A stretch of DNA of 64,000 nt. Source: Candidatus Levyibacteriota bacterium (GTDB taxonomy: Bacteria; Patescibacteriota; Microgenomatia; Levybacterales; UBA12049). Numbering within the stretch: the first letter of the stretch is position 1; every line of letters starts with the position of its first letter. The stretch covers positions 12,401 to 76,400 of the forward strand of contig JAGOUW010000001.1 of NCBI GenBank assembly GCA_018061075.1. Reading direction: 5' to 3'. Under the pieces are notes generated by a model. That model was not told the origin of the DNA. It worked only from the letters and a program-made list of their open reading frames with translations, and searched no databases. This document shows positions 1-42,412 of this stretch, piece by piece. The position numbers were made by a program, and so were the translations under genes.

Positions 1-3120
<3,120 letters not shown>

Positions 3121-3744: not shown

Positions 3745-4335
3745 TTAACGGGGTTTTGGTGATCTAAGTTTAGCTAACTCGGCTAAATAAGTTTCGTAAT
3801 CTTTTATGTATTCTGGTACTTGCTCAACAGACTCTATCCTTCTGTTTGATTCTAAGGAAACAACCAATGACCTCTCATCTCCAACTGTATCTATATGAGG
3901 ATCGCTTAAACGATAACTCTCTCCGATAAAAACTTCCACTTCTGCATCCGGCTTCATGCTCATATTGAATCGTCCAGTAACAAATTCGCCTTTATCCAAT
4001 ACGGGACGGGAATATCTAGCGCTAATATCTCCAAAATGTGATGCTATTATAAAAAGATCTCTTGGTCTTCCTACTCTCATTGCAGCTGAACTTCCTTTCT
4101 CTCTTCTCATTTCTTTAAATTCTAGAACCATATCTTCTCTTGTAAACCTCAGTAAAAGTGCATCCGGAATTACAAGTTGATCAGGATAAACAAAAGCTAA
4201 TTCAGTAGAAAATGGCCTGGGAACCGCCTTAAGATGCTCAAGTATTTGAGTATCTGTATAGTCCTGTGGAATTTGCCAAGGAATTCTTTGATCACCTACT
4301 CCCGGAGGAGTAGGCCCTTCGTGTGAACCTGCCAT
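3745..4335 (-). CDS. hypothetical protein (196 aa); GC higher than the local average
   Basis: Long ORF with coding-like composition; no recognisable motifs. Lies immediately upstream (in transcription terms) of the tRNA-Ala/23S locus, where a 16S gene would be expected. Confidence 0.45.
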   Translation of the reverse strand: MAGSHEGPTPPGVGDQRIPWQIPQDYTDTQILEHLKAVPRPFSTELAFVYPDQLVIPDALLLRFTREDMVLEFKEMRREKGSSAAMRVGRPRDLFIIASHFGDISARYSRPVLDKGEFVTGRFNMSMKPDAEVEVFIGESYRLSDPHIDTVGDERSLVVSLESNRRIESVEQVPEYIKDYETYLAELAKLRSPKPR

Positions 4336-4428
4336 ACGCGAAAGATTCTAAAACTATATATTAAATATGTCAAATTAGTCACAAAAACTATTGTTAACGC
4401 ATAAATATTCCTGATATACTAAATTCTC

Positions 4429-6215: not shown

Positions 6216-7139
6216 TCAACTGCTATTTTTATCTCTTAGCCACCATTCTGCTTCTAAGGCTGCAGCGGCACCGTATCCTGCTGCTGTAATTGCCTGTTTA
6301 TACTTCGCGTCATGAACATCTCCAGCCACAAAAACACCATCTACATTTGTCTTATAATGATCTGAGACTTTTATAAAACCGCGTTCATCCCTGTCTATTC
6401 CTTCAAAAACTTTTGAATTTGGGATGTGGCCTATCGCTACAAAAACTCCATGTATTGGCATTTCTGTAATTTCATTTGTTTTATTATTAAGCATACTCAC
6501 CTTTTCTACCACCTGATCACCCAAAATTTCTTTAATCTGAGTATTTAAAACTATTTTTATTTTGGGGTTTTCTTTTACTCTTTTTTGCATAATCTCACTG
6601 GCTCTAAAGCTATCTCCTCTATGCACTAAAGTCACGCTTGCAGCATACTCTGTTAAAACTAAAGCTTCCTCCATAGCAGAGTCTCCGCCTCCAACTACAA
6701 TCACATTTTTATTCCTGAAAAAAGGTCCATCGCATGGTGCACAGGTAGAAACACCCCGTCCAATCTTTTCCATTTCTCCTGGAACACCCAGCCACTTAGT
6801 GTCAGCTCCAGTTGCAATCACTACAGTCTTTCCTTCAAATTCCTCTTCTCCCGCTTTTATCTTAAAAGGTCCACCTGGAGTCGTAAAATCTCCGGAAACA
6901 AATTCCTTTTCGACAATTTCTGTACCAAACTTCTCAGATTGCTTTCTCATCGCAGTCATAAGCTCTGGCCCCTGAATTCCTTGCGGAAAACCTGGAAAAT
7001 TCTCTACAAGTGTCGTTAGCTGAAGCTGGCCTCCCCACTTTGGACCTGCAATGATAAGAGTTTTTAGATTCGCGCGAGTTGTATAAATTGAAGCTGTTAA
7101 ACCAGCTGGCCCTGAACCAATTATTATTACGTCAAACAT
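6216..7139 (-). CDS. trxB: thioredoxin-disulfide reductase
   Basis: GSGPAG FAD-binding motif at the N-terminus. CAPC redox-active disulfide (CAPCDG). NADPH-binding GGGDSA. 307 aa. Confidence 0.9.
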   Translation of the reverse strand: MFDVIIIGSGPAGLTASIYTTRANLKTLIIAGPKWGGQLQLTTLVENFPGFPQGIQGPELMTAMRKQSEKFGTEIVEKEFVSGDFTTPGGPFKIKAGEEEFEGKTVVIATGADTKWLGVPGEMEKIGRGVSTCAPCDGPFFRNKNVIVVGGGDSAMEEALVLTEYAASVTLVHRGDSFRASEIMQKRVKENPKIKIVLNTQIKEILGDQVVEKVSMLNNKTNEITEMPIHGVFVAIGHIPNSKVFEGIDRDERGFIKVSDHYKTNVDGVFVAGDVHDAKYKQAITAAGYGAAAALEAEWWLRDKNSS

Positions 7140-8360: not shown

Positions 8361-9143
8361 TTAGTGTCCGTGTGGAAGATAAGTAATAGTTAACCAAATA
8401 ACTGAGACTCCAAGAATAAAGAAGATAGACTCCTTAAATGCATAACCCTCCTTCTCTTCTCCATGAATCTCAGGTAGTAAATTTGTTAATGCAATGTAAA
8501 TGAAGAATCCTGCGGTAATCGATAACGCATAAGGAAGAATTCCCTCAATTGATTCTCCAACAATTAGAGCTAAACCAGCTCCAACAACCGCTAGAAGTGC
8601 GCTTAGAATATTTATGAAAAGTACCTTCTTTTTAGTCATCCCTTCATGAAGCAAGATTGCAAAATCACCTATTTCCTGAGGAAGTTCGTGCGCGATCACG
8701 GCAAATGTCGTAGCAATTCCTGATGCAGGATTTATCAAGAAAGTAATTGCAATTGCAACTCCATCAATAAAATTATGAACGCTATCACCAAAAATCACTA
8801 AAGGAATATTTACCGTCCCATGCTTTCCCGTTTTTTTATTTTGATGATGTGAATACCAATGAATTCCCCTATCTAATAAGTAAAAGAAAAATATACCAGC
8901 CAAAGTCCATAAGAAGACATTTATTTCAACTCCGCTTAGCTCTTTTACCTCTTCCGCATGTTCAATTGCTTCAGGAAGAAGCTCGAAAAACGCATTTCCT
9001 AGAAGTGCACCGGCAGCAAAAGAAACAAGAACATGAGAAATATTTTTAAGTGATTTATTCCACAGAAGAAGAAGTACTCCTCCCGCAAGAGCCCCTATAC
9101 TTCCAATAAATGCTGATATAAAAATTGATTCTATTCCTGACAT
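8361..9143 (-). CDS. zupT: ZIP-family zinc/metal transporter (ZupT-like)
   Basis: Polytopic membrane protein with HNFIDGVAIA and HELPQEIGDFAILL signature helices carrying metal-binding His/Glu/Asp. Confidence 0.8.
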   Translation of the reverse strand: MSGIESIFISAFIGSIGALAGGVLLLLWNKSLKNISHVLVSFAAGALLGNAFFELLPEAIEHAEEVKELSGVEINVFLWTLAGIFFFYLLDRGIHWYSHHQNKKTGKHGTVNIPLVIFGDSVHNFIDGVAIAITFLINPASGIATTFAVIAHELPQEIGDFAILLHEGMTKKKVLFINILSALLAVVGAGLALIVGESIEGILPYALSITAGFFIYIALTNLLPEIHGEEKEGYAFKESIFFILGVSVIWLTITYLPHGH

Positions 9144-9158
9144 ATTACTTATAATAAA

Positions 9159-9569
9159 TTAAACTTGACATGAACGGCATACTCCAAAAAATTCTAATGA
9201 ATGCGATTTAATCAAAAAGCCATTTTTTGTTTTAATTCCTTCCTCAATCTTTTCTACAAAATTCCCCTCAACATCCTCTATTCTTCCACAATTTTGGCAA
9301 ATTAAATGATGATGATGGGTTTTAGGCAGCTCATATCTATACTTCCCTTCGCCAAACTCCAAGCGCGAAATCAAACCTTTTTGAGTTAAAACGTCAAGAA
9401 CTCTATAGACAGTAGCTTGATCCATCTCAACTCCGCTTGATCTTAAACTCTCGGCAATAGAAAAAACGTCTAAGGGATTTTTCTCTCTATCAAGTAAATT
9501 AAGTAAAGCAATTCGAGCCTCTGTGCTTTTCAAACCTGATTCTTGTAATAATTGTTTTTGTGCTTTCAT
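9159..9569 (-). CDS. zur: Fur-family transcriptional regulator, likely Zur (start at internal Met MKAQKQ)
   Basis: Winged-helix N-terminus, HHHH plus CxxC...CxxC (HHHHLICQNCG...CRSC) metal sites. Sits immediately upstream of and co-oriented with zupT. AAGGGG ribosome-binding site before the internal ATG. Confidence 0.75.
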   Translation of the reverse strand: MKAQKQLLQESGLKSTEARIALLNLLDREKNPLDVFSIAESLRSSGVEMDQATVYRVLDVLTQKGLISRLEFGEGKYRYELPKTHHHHLICQNCGRIEDVEGNFVEKIEEGIKTKNGFLIKSHSLEFFGVCRSCQV

Positions 9570-34509: not shown

Positions 34510-36867
34510 CTAGAGCTGAGCACGTTGGCCTATTACCTGCTCTATTACATTTACATCTTTTCCGTATTTAAGACGAGACAATTCTTTTATTAATTCTGCA
34601 ACTCTTGGATTTTTAGCAGCCTGCTCCTCATCCATATCTTTTGTAGTATCCAAAGAAAATGGAGGCACTGGCTCTCCGTTCACAACTGTTCTCATATAAC
34701 AATTAAAACGGTCAATATTTATTAGATCTGCTTCTGAGAATGTTGGCTGGAATTCATGTGCCAGATAATTCGCATCGGTCACTCCTACTCTAAAAGCAGC
34801 CAATGTTCCCACGTTTCCAAAAATAGCATTTTTAACTTCTTCCTCCATCTGCCCTATAAACTGGTTAGCAACTATTAAATCCAAGCGGTATTTTCTAGCT
34901 TCTGAAAGAATCTGAGCGAAGTCAGGAGTTGCAAAGTTCTGGAACTCGTCAACATAAAGAAAGAAGTCTTTTCTCTGATCCATAGGCATAGTTTGCCTAC
35001 TCATAGCAGCGATAAGAATTTTTGGAACTAAAATCAAACCCAGGAAGCTTGAATTTTCTTCACCAATCTTTCCTTTTGAAAGATTTATAAGGAGAATTTT
35101 TTGATTATTCATAACTTCTTTCACATTAAATGCAGATTCAGATTGGCCAATAATATTTCTCATGGTTTTATTTGTAACGAAACGACCGAACTTAGAAACG
35201 ATGTAATCTAAAACTTCTGATTTGTGAAAGTCAGAAGTCTGAGCAATCTGATCAGTCCAATATCTGCGGACAATTGGATCCTGAACGTGAGGAAGAAGCT
35301 CCTGAACGAAATTTGCATCAGTTAAAACACGAACAACCTCTATAAAAGTGCTTCCTTTCCTACTCATAACTGTAAGCATCGCGTTTCTGATGGCGTGCTC
35401 AAATCGAGGTCCGATAATTCCAGTTTTATTAGGATCATAAAGCTTATACATGAGTCCGACAATTGAGGACACCACGTAGTGTTTTTCCTCTTCAGTATCA
35501 GCTTCTAACATGTTTAATCCCATCGGACGCGATGTATCAGACGGATCAAATAAAATCACATCTTCTGCTCTCTCTGGTGGAATCATTTGTAGAATATCTT
35601 CAATAAGATCTCCATGAGGATCTACCACTCCGACTCCCTCTCCATTTTTAATATCCTGAAGAATCATTTGCTTAAGAAACTCTGTTTTTCCAGTTCCTGT
35701 TTTTCCGATAATGTAAGTGTGTCTTCTTCTATCATCTCTCTCTACATGTACATCTCGAGACAATCCTCTATATATGCTTTTACCCAGAAAAAGCCCAGTG
35801 GTTGGAACATGTGCTGCGACCGGAGCCCTCTTGGAGCTAACCCAGAAAATATGAGGAGTTGCAACAGATTTATTTGGAAAATGAAAAATCGTAGCCAGTT
35901 CTTCTGAGCTTAAGATCGAAGGAGCACCACGCTTTTGATGATATCTATAAATAAAATCATCCATAAATGCTTTTTGCCTTTTTACGCTCACTTTTGTGAA
36001 TGAATTGTGGCCATTAAACTGACTAAAAGCATTTTTAATATTACTTAAATGAGCTTCAGCAGTCTCTTTAGTAGAGGACGCAACAACTAGCCTAACTACT
36101 GTATTAAACCCAGGCTTACTAACTTTAGATTCTATTGATTCAAGTTCTTTTGCGTCAACTGAATATTTTGCCGTTTCAGGATTTGCTTCCTCTTTTTTAG
36201 TATGTGAAACATGATCCTTACCTAATTTTTTCCATGCTGACTCAGCTGGAGAAATAACAATTTGAATCGCAGCTCCCTCTCCTTCAGTCATTTTTGCGAG
36301 AACTGAAGTTATAGTAGACAGTGGATCTACTGCAAATTCTTTATATGTTTTAATTGATTCATAATTATCTTTTTTAAGCCCTAATTGCGCAAAAGCTACT
36401 TTAGAATTTTCTCCGAAAATATTATAGTCATTTCCCACTACAAACCCTTCTTTTAGGGAAGTTTTTTCAGTTACTTCTTTTATCTCAGCATCTGGATAGG
36501 CTCCGTTTATCTGCTTTTCTACAAAATCTTTATATTTATTAGGAACGGAAATAAAAAATCTGATATCTCCTGGCATTCCAACAATTTCAAATGATAATAC
36601 AGGCTGATCTACAAGCCATTGTGGTTTTCCACTTTTATGAAGCGATGCAAAGCTTGAAAAAAGTTGTTCAGCTGCATCAATCTTTACCTCGTTGTCTCGA
36701 GGAAGTGCGATCTGAAGAAGAGTTGAATCAAGTGAAGCTTTTTCCCTATGCCTATATTTATATCTGAGAGCAAGAACGTAGCTAATTCCTCCAATCGCAG
36801 CGGAAAGAAGGCCAAGAATTAAAATGGCCAACATCATGTTAAACATTAAAGCGAAAGGATTTCCCAT
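34510..36867 (-). CDS. TraD/VirD4/TrwB-type coupling-protein-like ATPase (membrane-anchored, 785 aa)
   Basis: N-terminal TM. Walker A IIGKTGTGKTEF followed by VVDPHGDL (compare TrwB IVDPNGD). Walker B FLYVDEFQNF and RKYRLDLIVANQ (RK...Q motif of type IV coupling proteins). An unusual domain of about 330 aa sits between the TM and the NTPase. Confidence 0.55.
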   Translation of the reverse strand: MGNPFALMFNMMLAILILGLLSAAIGGISYVLALRYKYRHREKASLDSTLLQIALPRDNEVKIDAAEQLFSSFASLHKSGKPQWLVDQPVLSFEIVGMPGDIRFFISVPNKYKDFVEKQINGAYPDAEIKEVTEKTSLKEGFVVGNDYNIFGENSKVAFAQLGLKKDNYESIKTYKEFAVDPLSTITSVLAKMTEGEGAAIQIVISPAESAWKKLGKDHVSHTKKEEANPETAKYSVDAKELESIESKVSKPGFNTVVRLVVASSTKETAEAHLSNIKNAFSQFNGHNSFTKVSVKRQKAFMDDFIYRYHQKRGAPSILSSEELATIFHFPNKSVATPHIFWVSSKRAPVAAHVPTTGLFLGKSIYRGLSRDVHVERDDRRRHTYIIGKTGTGKTEFLKQMILQDIKNGEGVGVVDPHGDLIEDILQMIPPERAEDVILFDPSDTSRPMGLNMLEADTEEEKHYVVSSIVGLMYKLYDPNKTGIIGPRFEHAIRNAMLTVMSRKGSTFIEVVRVLTDANFVQELLPHVQDPIVRRYWTDQIAQTSDFHKSEVLDYIVSKFGRFVTNKTMRNIIGQSESAFNVKEVMNNQKILLINLSKGKIGEENSSFLGLILVPKILIAAMSRQTMPMDQRKDFFLYVDEFQNFATPDFAQILSEARKYRLDLIVANQFIGQMEEEVKNAIFGNVGTLAAFRVGVTDANYLAHEFQPTFSEADLINIDRFNCYMRTVVNGEPVPPFSLDTTKDMDEEQAAKNPRVAELIKELSRLKYGKDVNVIEQVIGQRAQL

Positions 36868-36872
36868 TATAT

Positions 36873-37241
36873 TTAAGCCGCCTTTCTATCTATTTGTCTT
36901 TCGTAAACCAAACCAGCTCCAGTTGAACCTTCACTAGCTTTTCCTTTTGTTGCCGCGATTGCAGCTTCAGGCGTTCCAAATCCATCAGGTAAACTAATTC
37001 CAGATCCGTCTACCATGGAAAGCTTTGCGGGAGTCTGCACCGCTCCTGTTCCCTCAAGTGAATGCTCAGGCACAGCTACCGGCTTTACAAATCCAGAAAG
37101 CTCTTCTGCAATTGCAGGCAGTTGATGTGTTGCTTGTACGAAATCATCAGCTTGTGCTATCTCAGCCTTAGCCAACTTTTCTGCCTCAGATGAAGCTGCA
37201 GCAACCGGAATTTTAGGTATTAAATTTTGATCTTCATTCAT
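36873..37241 (-). CDS. hypothetical Ala-rich protein (122 aa)
   Basis: ORF immediately upstream of the coupling-protein-like gene, same strand. Confidence 0.4.
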   Translation of the reverse strand: MNEDQNLIPKIPVAAASSEAEKLAKAEIAQADDFVQATHQLPAIAEELSGFVKPVAVPEHSLEGTGAVQTPAKLSMVDGSGISLPDGFGTPEAAIAATKGKASEGSTGAGLVYERQIDRKAA

Positions 37242-37317
37242 ATAACTATATTATCACAATAAAGCTAAGGGGCTTGAAATAATTATTACAAAAAGTTAAC
37301 AAAAATAATCCTTGAGG

Positions 37318-37851
37318 TCACTTCTTTTTCCAGATTTTTTCTTTCTTTCTTTCCTTGTAGTTTACGAAGCGCGCAATAGTAAATAATAAATCTGATAAAC
37401 GATTTAGATAAACTATAATTGCATTATCAATTTCTTCAGTTCTATTTAAATCTACGATGCGTCTTTCAGCTCGCCTAGCAATCGTACGCGCAACATGAAT
37501 AAGAGAGCCTCCTCTTCCTCCACCTGGAAGAATAAATTGATTTAACGGAGGCATTTGCTTTGTGAGCTTATCAATCAATTTTTCAAACTCTGCGGGCCTA
37601 TGAGCAATTTGGGGAGCTGGTAAAGTAAAAGATACAGCTAGTGAAGAGCCAATTTCTAAAAGATCATTTTGAATTTCTTCTAATTCTTTATTTACTGAAG
37701 CTATCTTTATAAACGCTGAGGCTGCACCAATCGCAGAATTTAATTCGTCAATTGTGCCATAAGTCTCGACTTTCTTATCAGACTTTAAAACTTTTTTTCC
37801 GTCAAAAAGCGAAGTTTTACCCTTGTCTCCTGTTCTTGTATAAATAGGCAT
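37318..37851 (-). CDS. pduO: PduO-type ATP:cob(I)alamin adenosyltransferase
   Basis: N-terminus MPIYTRTGDKGKTSLFDG matches the PduO/MMAB signature. 177 aa. Confidence 0.85.
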   Translation of the reverse strand: MPIYTRTGDKGKTSLFDGKKVLKSDKKVETYGTIDELNSAIGAASAFIKIASVNKELEEIQNDLLEIGSSLAVSFTLPAPQIAHRPAEFEKLIDKLTKQMPPLNQFILPGGGRGGSLIHVARTIARRAERRIVDLNRTEEIDNAIIVYLNRLSDLLFTIARFVNYKERKKEKIWKKK

Positions 37852-38419
37852 AAATATTCTGTTTTGACAATTTTATAGCAGCCTCAAAACTTCCAAAAAA
37901 TAAAGCTACATAGAAAATATCTCCAGCGAGCGTATTTTTGAAAAATGGAATTGCCATTACGTAGGCTTGAAGCATTCCATCGATATTTTTAGGATATAAA
38001 GATGTTGCGTAAAAGAAATTAAAATTAGTAATTAGGAAAAATAAAATTGAGGAAGATAAAGAGGCGGCAATTATGTTTTTAACGGATTTATGAGATCTTA
38101 ACCAAATTCCAATAAGAGCAACAACTAAAAAACTACCATAAACAGCTAGTGTTGATGCGTGAATTAAAGATTGAGGGGAATATAATTTTGAGAAGTTAAT
38201 AAATTGCGGGGAAAAAGGATTTATATATAAAAGCAGATAGTCCGAAACAATTAACGTACAGAAAACGATAATAAGCGAGTACTTCCTGTTAAGGTAAGTG
38301 CCTCCGAAAAGAGCCATTGCAGCAATCGGTGCAAAATTTGCTGGATGAGGAAACAATCTGATTAAGACTGCCATCAAAATAATAAATAATGGGCCAATGT
38401 AATTTTTAATATCTTTCAT
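37817..38419 (-). CDS. small polytopic membrane protein, ECF-transporter S-component-like; candidate cobalamin uptake component
   Basis: 200 aa, about 6 TM. Encoded between the DUF4430 B12-binding gene and pduO, downstream of a putative cobalamin riboswitch. No ECF A/T genes nearby. Confidence 0.35.
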   Translation of the reverse strand: MKDIKNYIGPLFIILMAVLIRLFPHPANFAPIAAMALFGGTYLNRKYSLIIVFCTLIVSDYLLLYINPFSPQFINFSKLYSPQSLIHASTLAVYGSFLVVALIGIWLRSHKSVKNIIAASLSSSILFFLITNFNFFYATSLYPKNIDGMLQAYVMAIPFFKNTLAGDIFYVALFFGSFEAAIKLSKQNIYAYLYKNRRQG

Positions 38420-38420
38420 T

Positions 38421-39116
38421 TTAAAAACTAGTTAATACAAATTCAAGTTTATCATTATTGTTACATTTATAAGAAGAGACACCAGTACTAGCTGATGCAC
38501 CATTTATTCTAAATTCATAAAACTGATTTGCCGCAGCGTCTACCCCATTAAAGGAAGTTATAAATTTACCCATATCCCCTCCATAATCTGTGTACTTAAT
38601 ATTATCTGCTCCAATCGCGGCAACTACTGCTTCCCAGGCTGTCTGATCGGGAATAAGAGCTACATTATAAGAATCAGAAGACTTCTGTCCTGAATAATCA
38701 ACTCCAATTTGTACACTTAAACCCGCAGGAATAGGTGAAGGAGACGATGTAAGTGTCACTATTGGAGCAGTTGATATGTTTGGCACAGAAGTAGGTGCAG
38801 GCGTAACAGCTGAAGATGAATTATTACTTGGTACTGGTGTTGGGGTTAGAGAAATTTTTTGAACAAAAGTAATAGATGGAATTAATTTAGGAGCTAGTGT
38901 AGGAGTTGTGGAGATGGGTTTGGTTGGATTTGTATTTACAACAACTTTTTTAGAACTTGCTCCCAATACTTCTTTATTCTTATTTGCTTCAGTTTCATTT
39001 ACACTAAAAACCGATGCGCCCAGCAAAGACAAAGAGACAAATACAATAATAAACAAACCCTTACTTTTCCAAAGTTTATTTTTTATATCTACTAAATTTA
39101 GTTGTAATTTACCCAT
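38421..39116 (-). CDS. DUF4430-domain surface protein (predicted cobalamin-binding), N-terminal anchor plus Pro/Thr linker
   Basis: C-terminal YEFRINGASASTGVSSYKCNNNDKLEFVLTSF fits the DUF4430 pattern (VNG...G...Y.L..GD.I.W.Y). Start moved to MGKLQL (ATG at 39116), which has an AGAGGAG ribosome-binding site. Confidence 0.6.
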   Translation of the reverse strand: MGKLQLNLVDIKNKLWKSKGLFIIVFVSLSLLGASVFSVNETEANKNKEVLGASSKKVVVNTNPTKPISTTPTLAPKLIPSITFVQKISLTPTPVPSNNSSSAVTPAPTSVPNISTAPIVTLTSSPSPIPAGLSVQIGVDYSGQKSSDSYNVALIPDQTAWEAVVAAIGADNIKYTDYGGDMGKFITSFNGVDAAANQFYEFRINGASASTGVSSYKCNNNDKLEFVLTSF

Positions 39117-39119
39117 AAA

Positions 39120-39290
39120 AAAACTCCTCTTTACCCTGTAAGGGTTTCTCGAGAAGTTCACCAAAAAATCTTGCTCGAGAGTCTAAATAAGGTGGTTTTC
39201 CGACTTTACGGTAGCGGCACTGTGGAGGATTTACGCCTCACTTACCCAATCCCTATTGGTTCTAAGATATTAATACTAGTTATAATGAAA
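39120..39290 (-). promoter_or_regulatory. putative cobalamin (B12) riboswitch in the leader of the DUF4430 / membrane-protein / pduO operon
   Basis: Minus-strand RNA contains AAUAGGGA...GGCGUAAAUCC...CCGCUACCGUAAAG, which parallels the consensus AAUAGGGAA..GGUGAAAAUCC..CCGCCACUGUAA. A B12-box-like AGUCGGAAAACCACC follows. The ribosome-binding site AGAGGAG plus AUG come after a CCCUUACAGGG hairpin. Confidence 0.5.
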
Positions 39291-39305
39291 AGCAACCAGC
39301 AAATC

Positions 39306-41708
39306 TTAACATTCAGAGTGACCGCAAGCATAACACTTGCCGCATCCCTCTTCAAATACGAAAGCTGAAGTTCCGCATTCTGGACAAATATCAAAATTGT
39401 TTGTCTTAGGTTTTGTGTCAATTGTGATTCCTTCTTGAAGCGGAAGCTGCTGGAGAACTGCTATTTCTTCCTGTGGCTCAGATTTTGTTTCAACTGGAGC
39501 ATCAGCTGTTAATTTTATTTGGGCATCAGGAGTACTAGATGGAGGAACTAATTTGTCCTCTACTACTCCATTTACTTTAAACGCATATTGTCTTGCAAGA
39601 ATCTTTGCGACAGCATCAGGAAGTGATCTTACTCTATTTTCACCAAATCCAACACTTCTTGCTCCTCCAATTCCAGACAGCTGAGATATAACCTGGCGGA
39701 TCCTCTCGCGCGGCGGCAGGTTGCCTGCGAGACTTAAATTCAAAGAAATCATGCGTCCTAATGCTTCAGCCATAGCTGCAACATCAGAACCTGTTTTACC
39801 AATTGTTATAAACATTTCAAATGGTTCTCTATTTTGATCATGATTAAGAGTAATATAGGTGTCACCTACTGGAGTTTGAGTCTTATATGTAACTCCTTCC
39901 ATCATCATTGGACGAGGCGCTCTAACTGTGTGATTTGCAACGTCTGGAACTTTTACTTCTTCCTTCTTTTCTTCAACTCTTGAGAGAACTCCCTCCCGTG
40001 ATCCATCTCTCATGTAAGTTACGCCCTTTAAACCATTGTCATAAGCTGACATATAAAGATTTTTTACATCGTCAACCGTATGAGCATTTGGAGCATTAAC
40101 AGTTTTACTTATCGAAGAATCAATATATTCCTGAGCAATTGCCTGAACTGTTACGTGCTCCTCTGGAGTTAAATCATTTGCACTAACAAAATATCCTGGT
40201 TTTTCTGCATCTGGATTCTGTTTTCTCCATTCATCATATAATGGATGAAACATCTTGTGCTCCCCTAACCTATCGCGTCTTATAAATTCAAACTCATATA
40301 CTGGCTCAACTCCAGATGACACTCCTGAAATCAAACTTGTGGTTCCTGTAGGAGCAATAGTTAATAAAACTGCATTTCTGATTCCATTTTTTGCAATCTT
40401 ATCTCTAATTGGCTGAGGTAATCTTTGAATGTGATATCCCTTTAGATATTTTTCTTTATTAAATTTAGGAAATGCTCCTTTTTCTTTCGCAATATCAGCT
40501 GAAGCATCATATGCTTCATTTCTTAGAGTTTCGAAAATCTTTTTAATAGTGGCCTCTGATTCAGGTGCTCCATACTTTAATTTCATTTTTATTAAAGCAT
40601 CAGCAAGTCCTAAAATTCCTAAACCAGTTCTTCTAATGTCTTTTGCTACTTTTTCATTTTCTTTAAAGAAGTAGTATGTATCATCAATTACATTATCTAA
40701 AAATCTCATTGCGACTCTTACGTCTTTTCCAAATCTAGTGTATTCAAATTCTCCTTTTTCATTTACATAAGCTGATAAATTCATTGCTCCTAAATTACAT
40801 ACTGCCCAAGCGCCTAATGGCTGCTCTCCACATGGATTTGTAGCGATTAGAGTTTCAAAATATGCTGTGTTTGATCTCTTATTGCTTCGGTCTAGGAAAT
40901 GAAGACCTGGTTCTGCTGAAGTCCAAGCTGCTTTACAGATAAGATCCCAGAGATATTTTGCTTTAACGGTTTTTTTAACTACGACTTTTCCTCCAAGTTT
41001 TTTCCAACCTTCAAGATCTCCATTCCATTTTTCATCATATTTAGGATCATCTAAGTCTGGGTATTCCAAATCCCAATCTGTATCAGCTTTTACTGCTTCC
41101 ATGAATGCGTCAGAAACACAGACTGATAAATTAGCTCCATTTATGCGAGTAAGATCCTGCTTTACGGTAATAAATTCCTCGATGTCTGGATGCCAGTCGT
41201 GAAGCATAAGCATAAGCGCTCCTCTTCTACTCCCACCCTGCTGAACAATATCTTTCGTAGCTAGAGAATAAAGCTCTGCCCAGTTCATAGGACCTGAAGA
41301 AAAACCATTTACCTTTCTAACACGCGACCCTTTTGGACGAAGACTTGATAAATTAATTCCTACTCCTCCACCTCGAGCCATGATTTCAATCATGATTTTA
41401 AGATTATCTAAAATTCCATCCCTGGAATCTTTTGGAGATGGGATAACGAAGCAGTTAAAGTATGTAACGTCAAATCCAGTTCCTGCTCCAGCTAAAATAC
41501 GTCCGCCTGGAAGAAACTTAAATCCATCCATAGCCTCATAGAATTTTTTCTCCCAATGCTTCTGGTCAGACTTTTTTTCCTGTCCAGCAATCCCCTTTGC
41601 AACTCTTCTCCACATCTCATCTGGAGTTTGTTCCATAGGATTACCTTCTTTATCTTTTAAAGAATATCTGTCTAAAAATACTTTTTGCCTTACTCCATCT
41701 AATTTCAT
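39306..41708 (-). CDS. nrdJ: adenosylcobalamin-dependent ribonucleotide reductase (class II) with C-terminal zinc ribbon
   Basis: 800 aa. Conserved TNPCGEQPL active-site block. C-terminal CPECG...CGKCYACGHSEC 4-Cys motifs. Confidence 0.9.
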   Translation of the reverse strand: MKLDGVRQKVFLDRYSLKDKEGNPMEQTPDEMWRRVAKGIAGQEKKSDQKHWEKKFYEAMDGFKFLPGGRILAGAGTGFDVTYFNCFVIPSPKDSRDGILDNLKIMIEIMARGGGVGINLSSLRPKGSRVRKVNGFSSGPMNWAELYSLATKDIVQQGGSRRGALMLMLHDWHPDIEEFITVKQDLTRINGANLSVCVSDAFMEAVKADTDWDLEYPDLDDPKYDEKWNGDLEGWKKLGGKVVVKKTVKAKYLWDLICKAAWTSAEPGLHFLDRSNKRSNTAYFETLIATNPCGEQPLGAWAVCNLGAMNLSAYVNEKGEFEYTRFGKDVRVAMRFLDNVIDDTYYFFKENEKVAKDIRRTGLGILGLADALIKMKLKYGAPESEATIKKIFETLRNEAYDASADIAKEKGAFPKFNKEKYLKGYHIQRLPQPIRDKIAKNGIRNAVLLTIAPTGTTSLISGVSSGVEPVYEFEFIRRDRLGEHKMFHPLYDEWRKQNPDAEKPGYFVSANDLTPEEHVTVQAIAQEYIDSSISKTVNAPNAHTVDDVKNLYMSAYDNGLKGVTYMRDGSREGVLSRVEEKKEEVKVPDVANHTVRAPRPMMMEGVTYKTQTPVGDTYITLNHDQNREPFEMFITIGKTGSDVAAMAEALGRMISLNLSLAGNLPPRERIRQVISQLSGIGGARSVGFGENRVRSLPDAVAKILARQYAFKVNGVVEDKLVPPSSTPDAQIKLTADAPVETKSEPQEEIAVLQQLPLQEGITIDTKPKTNNFDICPECGTSAFVFEEGCGKCYACGHSEC

Positions 41709-41711
41709 AAT

Positions 41712-42161
41712 TTAATTTATTAATTTTTTGACTTCTTTTTCAAAGTCTTCTATGTCTACAAATCTCTTGAAAACGCTCGAAAATCTTATATATGCAATCT
41801 TGTCTAACTTCTTAAGTCTGCCCGCTACCATTTGCCCTATTTTTTTACTTTCTACCTCTACTGAATCAGCTCCTCTTAGCTCTCTTTCTACTTCTACTAT
41901 TATCTTCTCAATGTCTTCAACTGATACCGTGGTCTTTTCGCAGGATCTACTGATTCCGTTTCGCAGTTTATCTCTATTAAACTGTTCTCGTCGTCCATCT
42001 TTTTTTATAACAACCAGATTAACATTCTCTACTCTTTCATATGTCGTGAATCTTTTCTCGCACTTAACACAATTTCTTCGTCTACGTATTGTTTCGAGAT
42101 CTTCACTGTCTCTGGTTTCTACTACTTCTGTTTCGCGGGAACCGCAATATGGACATTTCAT
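41712..42161 (-). CDS. nrdR: transcriptional repressor NrdR
   Basis: MKCPYCGSRETEVVETRDSED...CVKCEKRFTTYERVE zinc ribbon plus ATP-cone. 149 aa. Confidence 0.95.
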   Translation of the reverse strand: MKCPYCGSRETEVVETRDSEDLETIRRRRNCVKCEKRFTTYERVENVNLVVIKKDGRREQFNRDKLRNGISRSCEKTTVSVEDIEKIIVEVERELRGADSVEVESKKIGQMVAGRLKKLDKIAYIRFSSVFKRFVDIEDFEKEVKKLIN

Positions 42162-42197
42162 AGCTTATTTTTCTTAGGGCAAATTCTTAAAGTTCTG

Positions 42198-42213
42198 ACA
42201 CTAAATCTAGTGC
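42198..42213. promoter_or_regulatory. candidate NrdR box (ACACTAAATCTAGTGC) upstream of nrdR-nrdJ
   Basis: Sixteen-bp near-palindrome resembling the NrdR-box consensus acaCwAtATaTwGtgt, 37 nt upstream of the nrdR start. Only one copy found. Confidence 0.35.
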
Positions 42214-42412
42214 CAAGATCGATCATATGCCCCTAACAGTGGGGTGTCAACTAACAATTACTAGATCAAAAAATATCAGTCGTTTTTTCAGCCTCGTTTT
42301 TAAACAGGACCAAAATTTAAGCAAAAATTAAGAAAAAATCGGGTATAAAAATGTGTTTAAAAATCTTAGTGCTGGGTAAAAAATTAGAACAATGTTTATT
42401 AAAAGCTATATT

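Follow-up and report, generated by a model that had tools for sequence, protein, structure and literature searches.

The locus described here lies in a 64-kb window, the whole stretch of DNA that was analysed, from a metagenome-assembled genome of Candidatus Levybacteria. This lineage belongs to the Microgenomates within the Candidate Phyla Radiation (CPR), in agreement with the CPR-type genome that had been supposed when the locus was first annotated from its sequence (hereafter the original prediction). CPR bacteria have minimal genomes and take cofactors from their neighbours. The original prediction placed five elements in a row on the minus strand: the repressor gene nrdR, the ribonucleotide reductase (RNR) gene nrdJ, a cobalamin riboswitch, the genes of a DUF4430 surface protein and a small membrane protein, and a pduO-type adenosyltransferase gene. 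Each of them was found inside 36873..42213 in the claimed order, with protein and RNA families above their curated cut-offs (Table 1). They are discussed below as a putative vitamin B12 salvage cassette located directly behind a class II, adenosylcobalamin (AdoCbl)-dependent RNR. The comparison relies on 80 loci collected with a profile of the membrane protein family DUF6580; labels such as L006 or L013 designate relatives among them.

Table 1. Coordinates of the features of the locus within the window and the evidence for each of them
Feature	Position	Strand	Evidence
Sigma-70-like promoter of nrdR-nrdJ, TTGACA-17-TATGAT	42250..42222	minus	11/12 consensus matches
NrdR-box-like palindrome CCCCACTGTTAGGGG	42244..42230	minus	within promoter spacer
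NrdR-box-like palindrome CACTAGATTTAGTG	42212..42199	minus	read from sequence
nrdR, 149 aa, zinc-ribbon and ATP-cone repressor	42161..41712	minus	TIGR00244, 187.1 bits (cut-off 124.65)
nrdJ, 800 aa, class II AdoCbl-dependent RNR	41708..39306	minus	TIGR02504 NrdJ_Z, 581.6 bits (cut-off 399.95)
Cobalamin riboswitch aptamer, class II, RF01689 AdoCbl-II	39256..39187	minus	44.4 bits (gathering score 36.5), E = 2e-7
Expression platform, 70 nt	39186..39117	minus	sequence and constrained folding
DUF4430 protein, 231 aa	39116..38421	minus	PF14478, 37.5 bits (cut-off 23.8)
DUF6580 membrane protein, 200 aa	38419..37817	minus	PF20221, 164 bits
PduO-type cob(I)alamin adenosyltransferase, 177 aa	37851..37318	minus	TIGR00636, 197 bits (cut-off 108)
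ORF122, 122 aa	36873..37241		no family match

The two upstream genes are those that had been proposed, since nrdR and a class II nrdJ are both recognized above the cut-offs of their respective models. NrdR contains the Pfam domains PF22811 and PF03477, and nrdJ starts 3 nt past the nrdR stop. NrdJ is made up of PF02867, PF00317 and PF12637 (TSCPD), and its score against the class I model is barely at that model's own cut-off. The protein family scans covered ~50 open reading frames (ORFs) of the window, among which there is no NrdB-like or NrdG-like gene, no second RNR and no further B12 gene. The C-terminus of NrdJ (CPECGTSAFVFEEGCGKCYACGHSEC) follows the pattern CPEC-x10-CGKCYAC-x3-C; the cysteine-rich tail foreseen by the original prediction is thus present, with six cysteines instead of four. 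A thioredoxin-reductase-like flavoprotein (PF07992, 175 bits) is encoded at 6216-7139, 32 kb from nrdJ, and could provide the reducing power for this tail. Among the relatives, the nrdJ ORF of L039 (2164-5577) is 1137 aa long and carries, past the NPC active-site motif, an insertion of ~350 aa that resembles an intein, and the nrdJ of L086 (5362-7766) is split into ORFs of 117 and 682 aa.

The promoter found upstream of nrdR is the top site of a promoter scan of the 36.5-42.6 kb region, and its layout is kept in L006, L013, L014, L026 and L027. It is accompanied by two NrdR-box-like palindromes with a centre-to-centre distance of 31.5 bp, the proximal one also being kept in relatives (GCACTAGAACTAGTGT in L006, ACACTAGATTTAGTGT in L020). 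A consensus for the NrdR box and a tandem spacing of 31-32 bp were reportedly described by Rodionov and Gelfand in 2005, and both palindromes presumably fit them. As the promoter overlaps these two boxes, nrdR-nrdJ would be controlled by the status of the deoxynucleotide pool.

The riboswitch had been predicted within 39100..39310. A scan of the window against all 4227 Rfam families detected it there as a member of RF01689; this is the accession of the AdoCbl-variant family, for which the original prediction had erroneously given RF01482. In the aptamer, P1 pairs 39256-39251 with 39192-39187 and P3 pairs 39248-39246 with 39195-39193; J1/3 consists of two nucleotides (AU) and L5 (UGCCG) occupies 39219-39215. 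The same Rfam family was matched in 11 of 12 related loci. A covariance model of our own, R1, built from the RF01689-positive related loci, scores the window aptamer at 72.9 bits and recovers 66 riboswitch instances in 54 of the 80 DUF6580 loci. Across 65 distinct homologues, the helices P1/P3, P4, P5 and P6 covary, with 87% of the cells paired as opposed to at most 48% in the controls made with slid pairings, and 16 of the 19 base pairs have changes on both sides. Since related genomes carry the same element in the same position, with strong covariation, the match cannot be attributed to chance. A second R1 match in the window (2620..2692; 19 bits, E = 0.026) falls inside the 23S rRNA and was discarded as a chance hit. 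The features that distinguish the cobalamin forms conflict with each other: the 2-nt J1/3 resembles the AdoCbl-binding Cbl-IIb, but the plain L6 loop resembles Cbl-IIa. In L033, two aptamers stand in tandem 3' of nrdJ (4161-4237 and 4303-4394, with 66 nt between them) and a third one is found on the opposite strand (9078-9168).

The aptamer is followed by an expression platform that begins with a 6-nt J1/13 linker (UUAGAC) and the hairpin P13/L13 (UCU-CGAGCA-AGA, 39180..39169). A hairpin with a CGAGCA loop is found 5-12 nt 3' of P1. Its 3-bp stem was studied in 42 distinct hairpins, where it is paired in 86% of the cells, against 62% and 33% in slid controls; the UCU/AGA of the window is replaced elsewhere by UCC/GGA, CUUC/GAAG, CUG/CAG or CUU/AAG. 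L5 (UGCCG) is complementary to CG(A)GCA in L13, with one bulged A, and changes in one loop are compensated in the other: L5 U to A with L13 A to U in L048, C to U with G to A in L010, G to A with C to U in L051, and G to U with C to A in L044. At the level of sequence comparison, covariation therefore shows both the RNA structure and the L5-L13 kissing loop.

The remainder of the platform can adopt two alternative folds. In the free fold (-18.1 kcal/mol), an anti-sequestor helix (UCUCGAG/CUCGAGA) uses up L13 and the Shine-Dalgarno sequence stays open. With P13 imposed and L13 made unavailable, constrained folding (-15.2 kcal/mol) pairs the Shine-Dalgarno within a 9-bp sequestor, in which GAACUUCUC (39159..39151) faces GAGGAGUUU (39129..39121). 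This helix is followed by what remains of a tract of seven U (39123..39117) and by the AUG. The ribosome binding site is located outside L13, ~45 nt farther downstream. Constrained folds gave the same two states in L013, L025, L048, L033 and L011. Because of this exchange between the anti-sequestor and the Shine-Dalgarno hairpin, we infer that the riboswitch is an OFF switch that acts on translation and probably on transcription too. In this model, the anti-sequestor would form without ligand and leave the Shine-Dalgarno of the DUF4430 gene accessible. Once a corrinoid is bound, L5 would kiss L13 on P13 and release the downstream strand, which would then fold into the hairpin that hides the Shine-Dalgarno directly 5' of the U7 tract; translation would be blocked and transcription probably terminated.

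The first gene under this putative control encodes the DUF4430 protein, an assignment of the original prediction that the PF14478 profile corroborates; DUF4430 is also the first gene 3' of the riboswitch in 35 of the 66 instances. A TTG start at 39164 was discarded in favor of the ATG at 39116 because the latter is preceded by the Shine-Dalgarno and the U tract and agrees with public gene calls. The protein has an N-terminal membrane anchor or signal, a Ser/Thr/Pro-rich linker of ~90 aa and a C-terminal DUF4430 domain. When searched as a single sequence against the PDB, only the low-complexity Thr/Pro linker was matched and a domain profile was required: with the profile of CPR homologues, human transcobalamin-1 is recovered through its beta domain (4kki_A, residues 350-433, E = 6.7e-6) and, more weakly, transcobalamin-2 and intrinsic factor. 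Pfam DUF4430 corresponds to the C-terminal domain of the transcobalamin-type B12 carriers, and the C-terminal beta domains of transcobalamin, haptocorrin and intrinsic factor in eukaryotes are homologous to it (PMC4350170). Contrary to these carriers, the window protein has the beta-like domain only, borne on a membrane anchor and a Ser/Thr/Pro-rich linker. Homology and the linkage to the riboswitch make this anchored protein a candidate extracellular corrinoid binder. In L086 (8054-10008) and L058 (7178-9717), the DUF4430 protein is adjoined by a separate alpha/alpha-toroid protein, with a faint Prenyltrans match in the former and a squalene-hopene-cyclase-like match in the latter. The alpha domain of transcobalamin is an alpha/alpha barrel, and each of these pairs could be equivalent to a complete transcobalamin divided between two genes.

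The three genes of the cassette are closely packed. The last of them, which shares 35 nt with the 3' end of the DUF6580 gene, encodes the expected PduO, matched by PF01923 (189.7 bits) in addition to TIGR00636. Between the DUF4430 and pduO genes lies that of the small membrane protein, for which DUF6580 (PF20221) is the sole Pfam match. It has a six-helix S-component fold and its closest structural relative is BtuM, the solitary S-component-like B12 transporter of Thiobacillus denitrificans (PMC6072759; PDB 8ovv), but the two proteins share only 14% identity, without a match at the sequence level. The two also differ in that BtuM uses an essential cysteine of loop 3 (Cys80) as a cobalt ligand (PMC6072759), a residue without an invariant counterpart in DUF6580, and in that BtuM is mainly proteobacterial. 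The invariant residues of DUF6580 in an alignment of 21 sequences (A1) include R20, H24, N27 and S58-D59-Y60. No ABC (ATP-binding cassette) ATPase and no EcfT/CbiQ occur among the ~50 ORFs of the window. The original prediction of a small membrane protein like the S-component of an energy-coupling factor (ECF) transporter is therefore right with regard to the fold, but it finds no backing in a sequence relation to the known S-component CbrT or in an ECF module within the 64 kb. DUF6580 is nevertheless a candidate corrinoid transporter. Outside CPR, Ignavibacterium album (L073, 3601-6489) has a unit made up of a classical cobalamin riboswitch, a TonB-dependent receptor (Plug and beta-barrel) and DUF6580, and similar units are found in L068, L072, L074, L076, L077 and L085. 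The Ignavibacterium unit mirrors the btuB-btuM context on which the prediction of BtuM was based (PMC6072759). The membrane importer is still unknown in many B12-dependent bacteria (PMC6072759), and no paper mentioning DUF6580 was found in the open-access literature that was searched.

The association of these genes is not restricted to the window. The order of nrdJ and the cassette is conserved in other CPR genomes: nrdJ lies upstream on the same strand in 36 of the 80 DUF6580 loci, and the riboswitch is located between nrdJ and DUF6580 in 28 of these 36. A CPR contig of 1.14 Mb has the same synteny as the window, with DUF5667, nrdR, nrdJ, DUF4430, DUF6580, PduO and, later on, a TrwB-like gene. 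In the window (34510-37241), pduO is followed by ORF122 and a 785-aa homologue of the TrwB/VirD4-like coupling proteins (PF10412, PF12696); this pair is also found 3' of the cassette in L014, L034, L039 and L086. ORF122 goes with this conserved TrwB-like neighbour and has no link to the B12 cassette.

Taken in order, the family matches and their conserved arrangement in CPR support the route that had been envisaged, from the capture of a corrinoid and its adenosylation to the synthesis of deoxynucleotides by a class II RNR. nrdR-nrdJ would be transcribed from the sigma-70-type promoter under its NrdR boxes, with the cassette placed directly behind. We infer that the DUF4430 protein would capture a corrinoid outside the cell and DUF6580 would move it across the membrane, after which PduO would adenosylate it into the AdoCbl required by NrdJ. 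As a whole, it is probable that the locus is a riboswitch-controlled B12 salvage cassette behind an NrdR-regulated class II RNR and that it follows the OFF logic described above.

Two characterized systems help to place this arrangement. Lactobacillus delbrueckii has a cluster with the order nrdJ-cbrS-cbrT-pduO, which includes the B12 transporter ECF-CbrT (PMC5997447). Both clusters associate an RNR, an accessory protein, a small membrane protein of the S-component type and a PduO adenosyltransferase, and L. delbrueckii is a B12 auxotroph. Since the gene order is equivalent, the concept was already known. Yet, CbrT has no detectable sequence similarity to DUF6580, the ECF module is absent from the window's 64 kb, and the window has nrdR joined upstream and a class II riboswitch between nrdJ and the uptake genes. 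What is new relative to L. delbrueckii is thus the replacement of CbrT by DUF6580, the upstream nrdR and the embedded riboswitch with its relay platform. The original prediction that such an arrangement had not been described for this lineage agrees with the open-access literature that was searched, where nothing relevant was found about a B12-dependent RNR or riboswitch in CPR/Patescibacteria, but it has to be tempered by this lactobacillar precedent in gene order. The second system is the riboswitch env8HyCbl (RF01689, Cbl-IIa; PMC5028336, PMC7367189). As in the window, its aptamer is built around a four-way junction and lacks the large P6 extension, its J1/13 linker is short, and L5 kisses an L13 in which one or more nucleotides stay unpaired; this loop-loop contact defines the regulation of env8HyCbl (PMC5028336). 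Its control is a translational OFF switch, which is also what we propose for the window. By contrast, J1/3 has only 2 nt in the window and is completely base-paired in the close relatives, a feature given for the AdoCbl-binding Cbl-IIb and not for Cbl-IIa; the ribosome binding site lies outside L13 and would be reached through a terminator-like relay of anti-sequestor and sequestor; and the element is found inside a gene cluster, not in a leader.

Several observations weigh against the proposed interpretation and have to be considered along with its alternatives. With regard to the transcription unit, the 49 nt between the nrdJ stop and the aptamer contain no promoter-like or terminator-like site in the window scan. 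In close relatives, the switch begins 0-8 nt past the nrdJ stop; in seven relatives, the match of the riboswitch model, in which P1 is preceded by ~10 nt of flanking sequence, has its start at -9 to +8 nt with respect to that stop. The lack of a promoter or terminator before the switch and its abutment on nrdJ in the relatives favor the co-transcription of nrdJ with the salvage cassette. Nevertheless, the cassette could be a transcription unit of its own, driven by a promoter in the 49-nt spacer, in which case it would be a mere neighbour of nrdR-nrdJ and there would be no supra-operon. This scenario draws on the 64 riboswitches whose upstream regions were surveyed, 29 of which have a sigma-70-like site directly upstream against a background rate of 7% (TTGACA-17-TATTAT in L021, and TTGACA in L043, L040 and L008), and on a weak candidate in the window itself (TTGCTT-17-TAATAT, 39295..39267) that ends 10 nt 5' of P1. 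Yet, this candidate has only 7/12 consensus matches, below the criteria of the scan, and no terminator was detected 3' of nrdJ in the window. Moreover, no promoter-like site was found 5' of the riboswitch in the closest relatives, and L006, L013, L026, L027, L016, L033 and L034 have neither such a site nor room for one outside the nrdJ coding sequence. A separate unit thus seems rather unlikely. The mode of control raises a similar question, because the characterized member of class II exerts its control at the ribosome binding site (PMC5028336) and the U7 tract could be a simple spacer within a purely translational device like env8HyCbl, without termination. In L055, L070, L039 and L029, the start codon directly follows P13 and there is no additional hairpin. 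The window hairpin is itself atypical as a terminator: a further stem is nested in the 21 nt that its sequestor encloses, and a simple terminator scan does not report it. The proposed switching also has to accommodate a gap of only ~3 kcal/mol between both platform folds, and the unconstrained minimum free energy fold of the whole nrdJ-DUF4430 spacer equals that of shuffled sequence (z = 0). However, about half of the riboswitch instances share a uniform design, in which a Shine-Dalgarno-bearing hairpin of 8-11 bp is followed by U5-8 and then by the start codon; this hairpin satisfies simple terminator criteria in L013 and L006, and an all-U composition would be superfluous in a plain spacer. 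Purely translational control consequently appears doubtful.

A more radical departure would be a riboswitch that activates (ON switch), or one that works on nrdJ from its 3' end instead of on the downstream genes. The element is indeed located in the 3' region of nrdJ, and an activating corrinoid riboswitch has been reported (PMC10653944). Nevertheless, L13 is so placed with respect to the anti-sequestor and sequestor that formation of the kissing loop is predicted to occlude the Shine-Dalgarno. B12 normally represses uptake genes, and the same riboswitch is encountered elsewhere 3' of pduO, or with a promoter of its own, at loci without an upstream nrdJ; all of this makes the possibility very improbable. 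With regard to DUF6580, neither phmmer nor a profile of the 21 sequences, searched against all PDB chains with E up to 10, revealed any sequence similarity to CbrT, BtuM or any other S-component; Foldseek found nothing significant in the PDB, and the 21-sequence alignment has no invariant or near-invariant cysteine, leaving the essential ligand of BtuM without a counterpart. DUF6580 might be no transporter but a receptor in the membrane, or else a partner of the DUF4430 protein with a role in corrinoid processing or in anchoring. The S-component fold is known in sensor proteins too (PMC11109136), and the lack of both a nearby ECF module and of sequence similarity to proven transporters would be congruent with such a role, although we regard it as improbable. 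Going further with DUF6580 as a transporter, a possibility that we hold with more reserve than the reading of the locus as a whole, and consider less likely than not, is that it represents a new family of corrinoid importers. It would combine a BtuM-like S-component fold with another ligand chemistry that dispenses with the cysteine ligand, be partnered by the anchored, transcobalamin-beta-like DUF4430 binder and operate without a dedicated ECF module. It would constitute the main B12 entry of Microgenomates and other CPR and, acting behind a TonB-dependent receptor, that of some Ignavibacteria and Bacteroidota. In the lineage of the window, a conditional terminator inside the nrdR-nrdJ transcript, itself governed by the riboswitch, would determine how strongly DUF6580 is expressed.

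The interpretation favored here would mean that the synthesis of DNA precursors in the Levybacteria genome represented by the window depends on scavenged B12. The comparison of loci also shows that the class II cobalamin riboswitch is widespread in CPR, where it has two layouts, either behind its own promoter or directly 3' of a coding sequence, and that its relay-type platform departs from the characterized env8 example. DUF6580, an uncharacterized Pfam family, gains a concrete and testable function. If the importer hypothesis is correct, a single promoter would serve both a B12-dependent enzyme and, only under B12 scarcity, the supply line of its cofactor.

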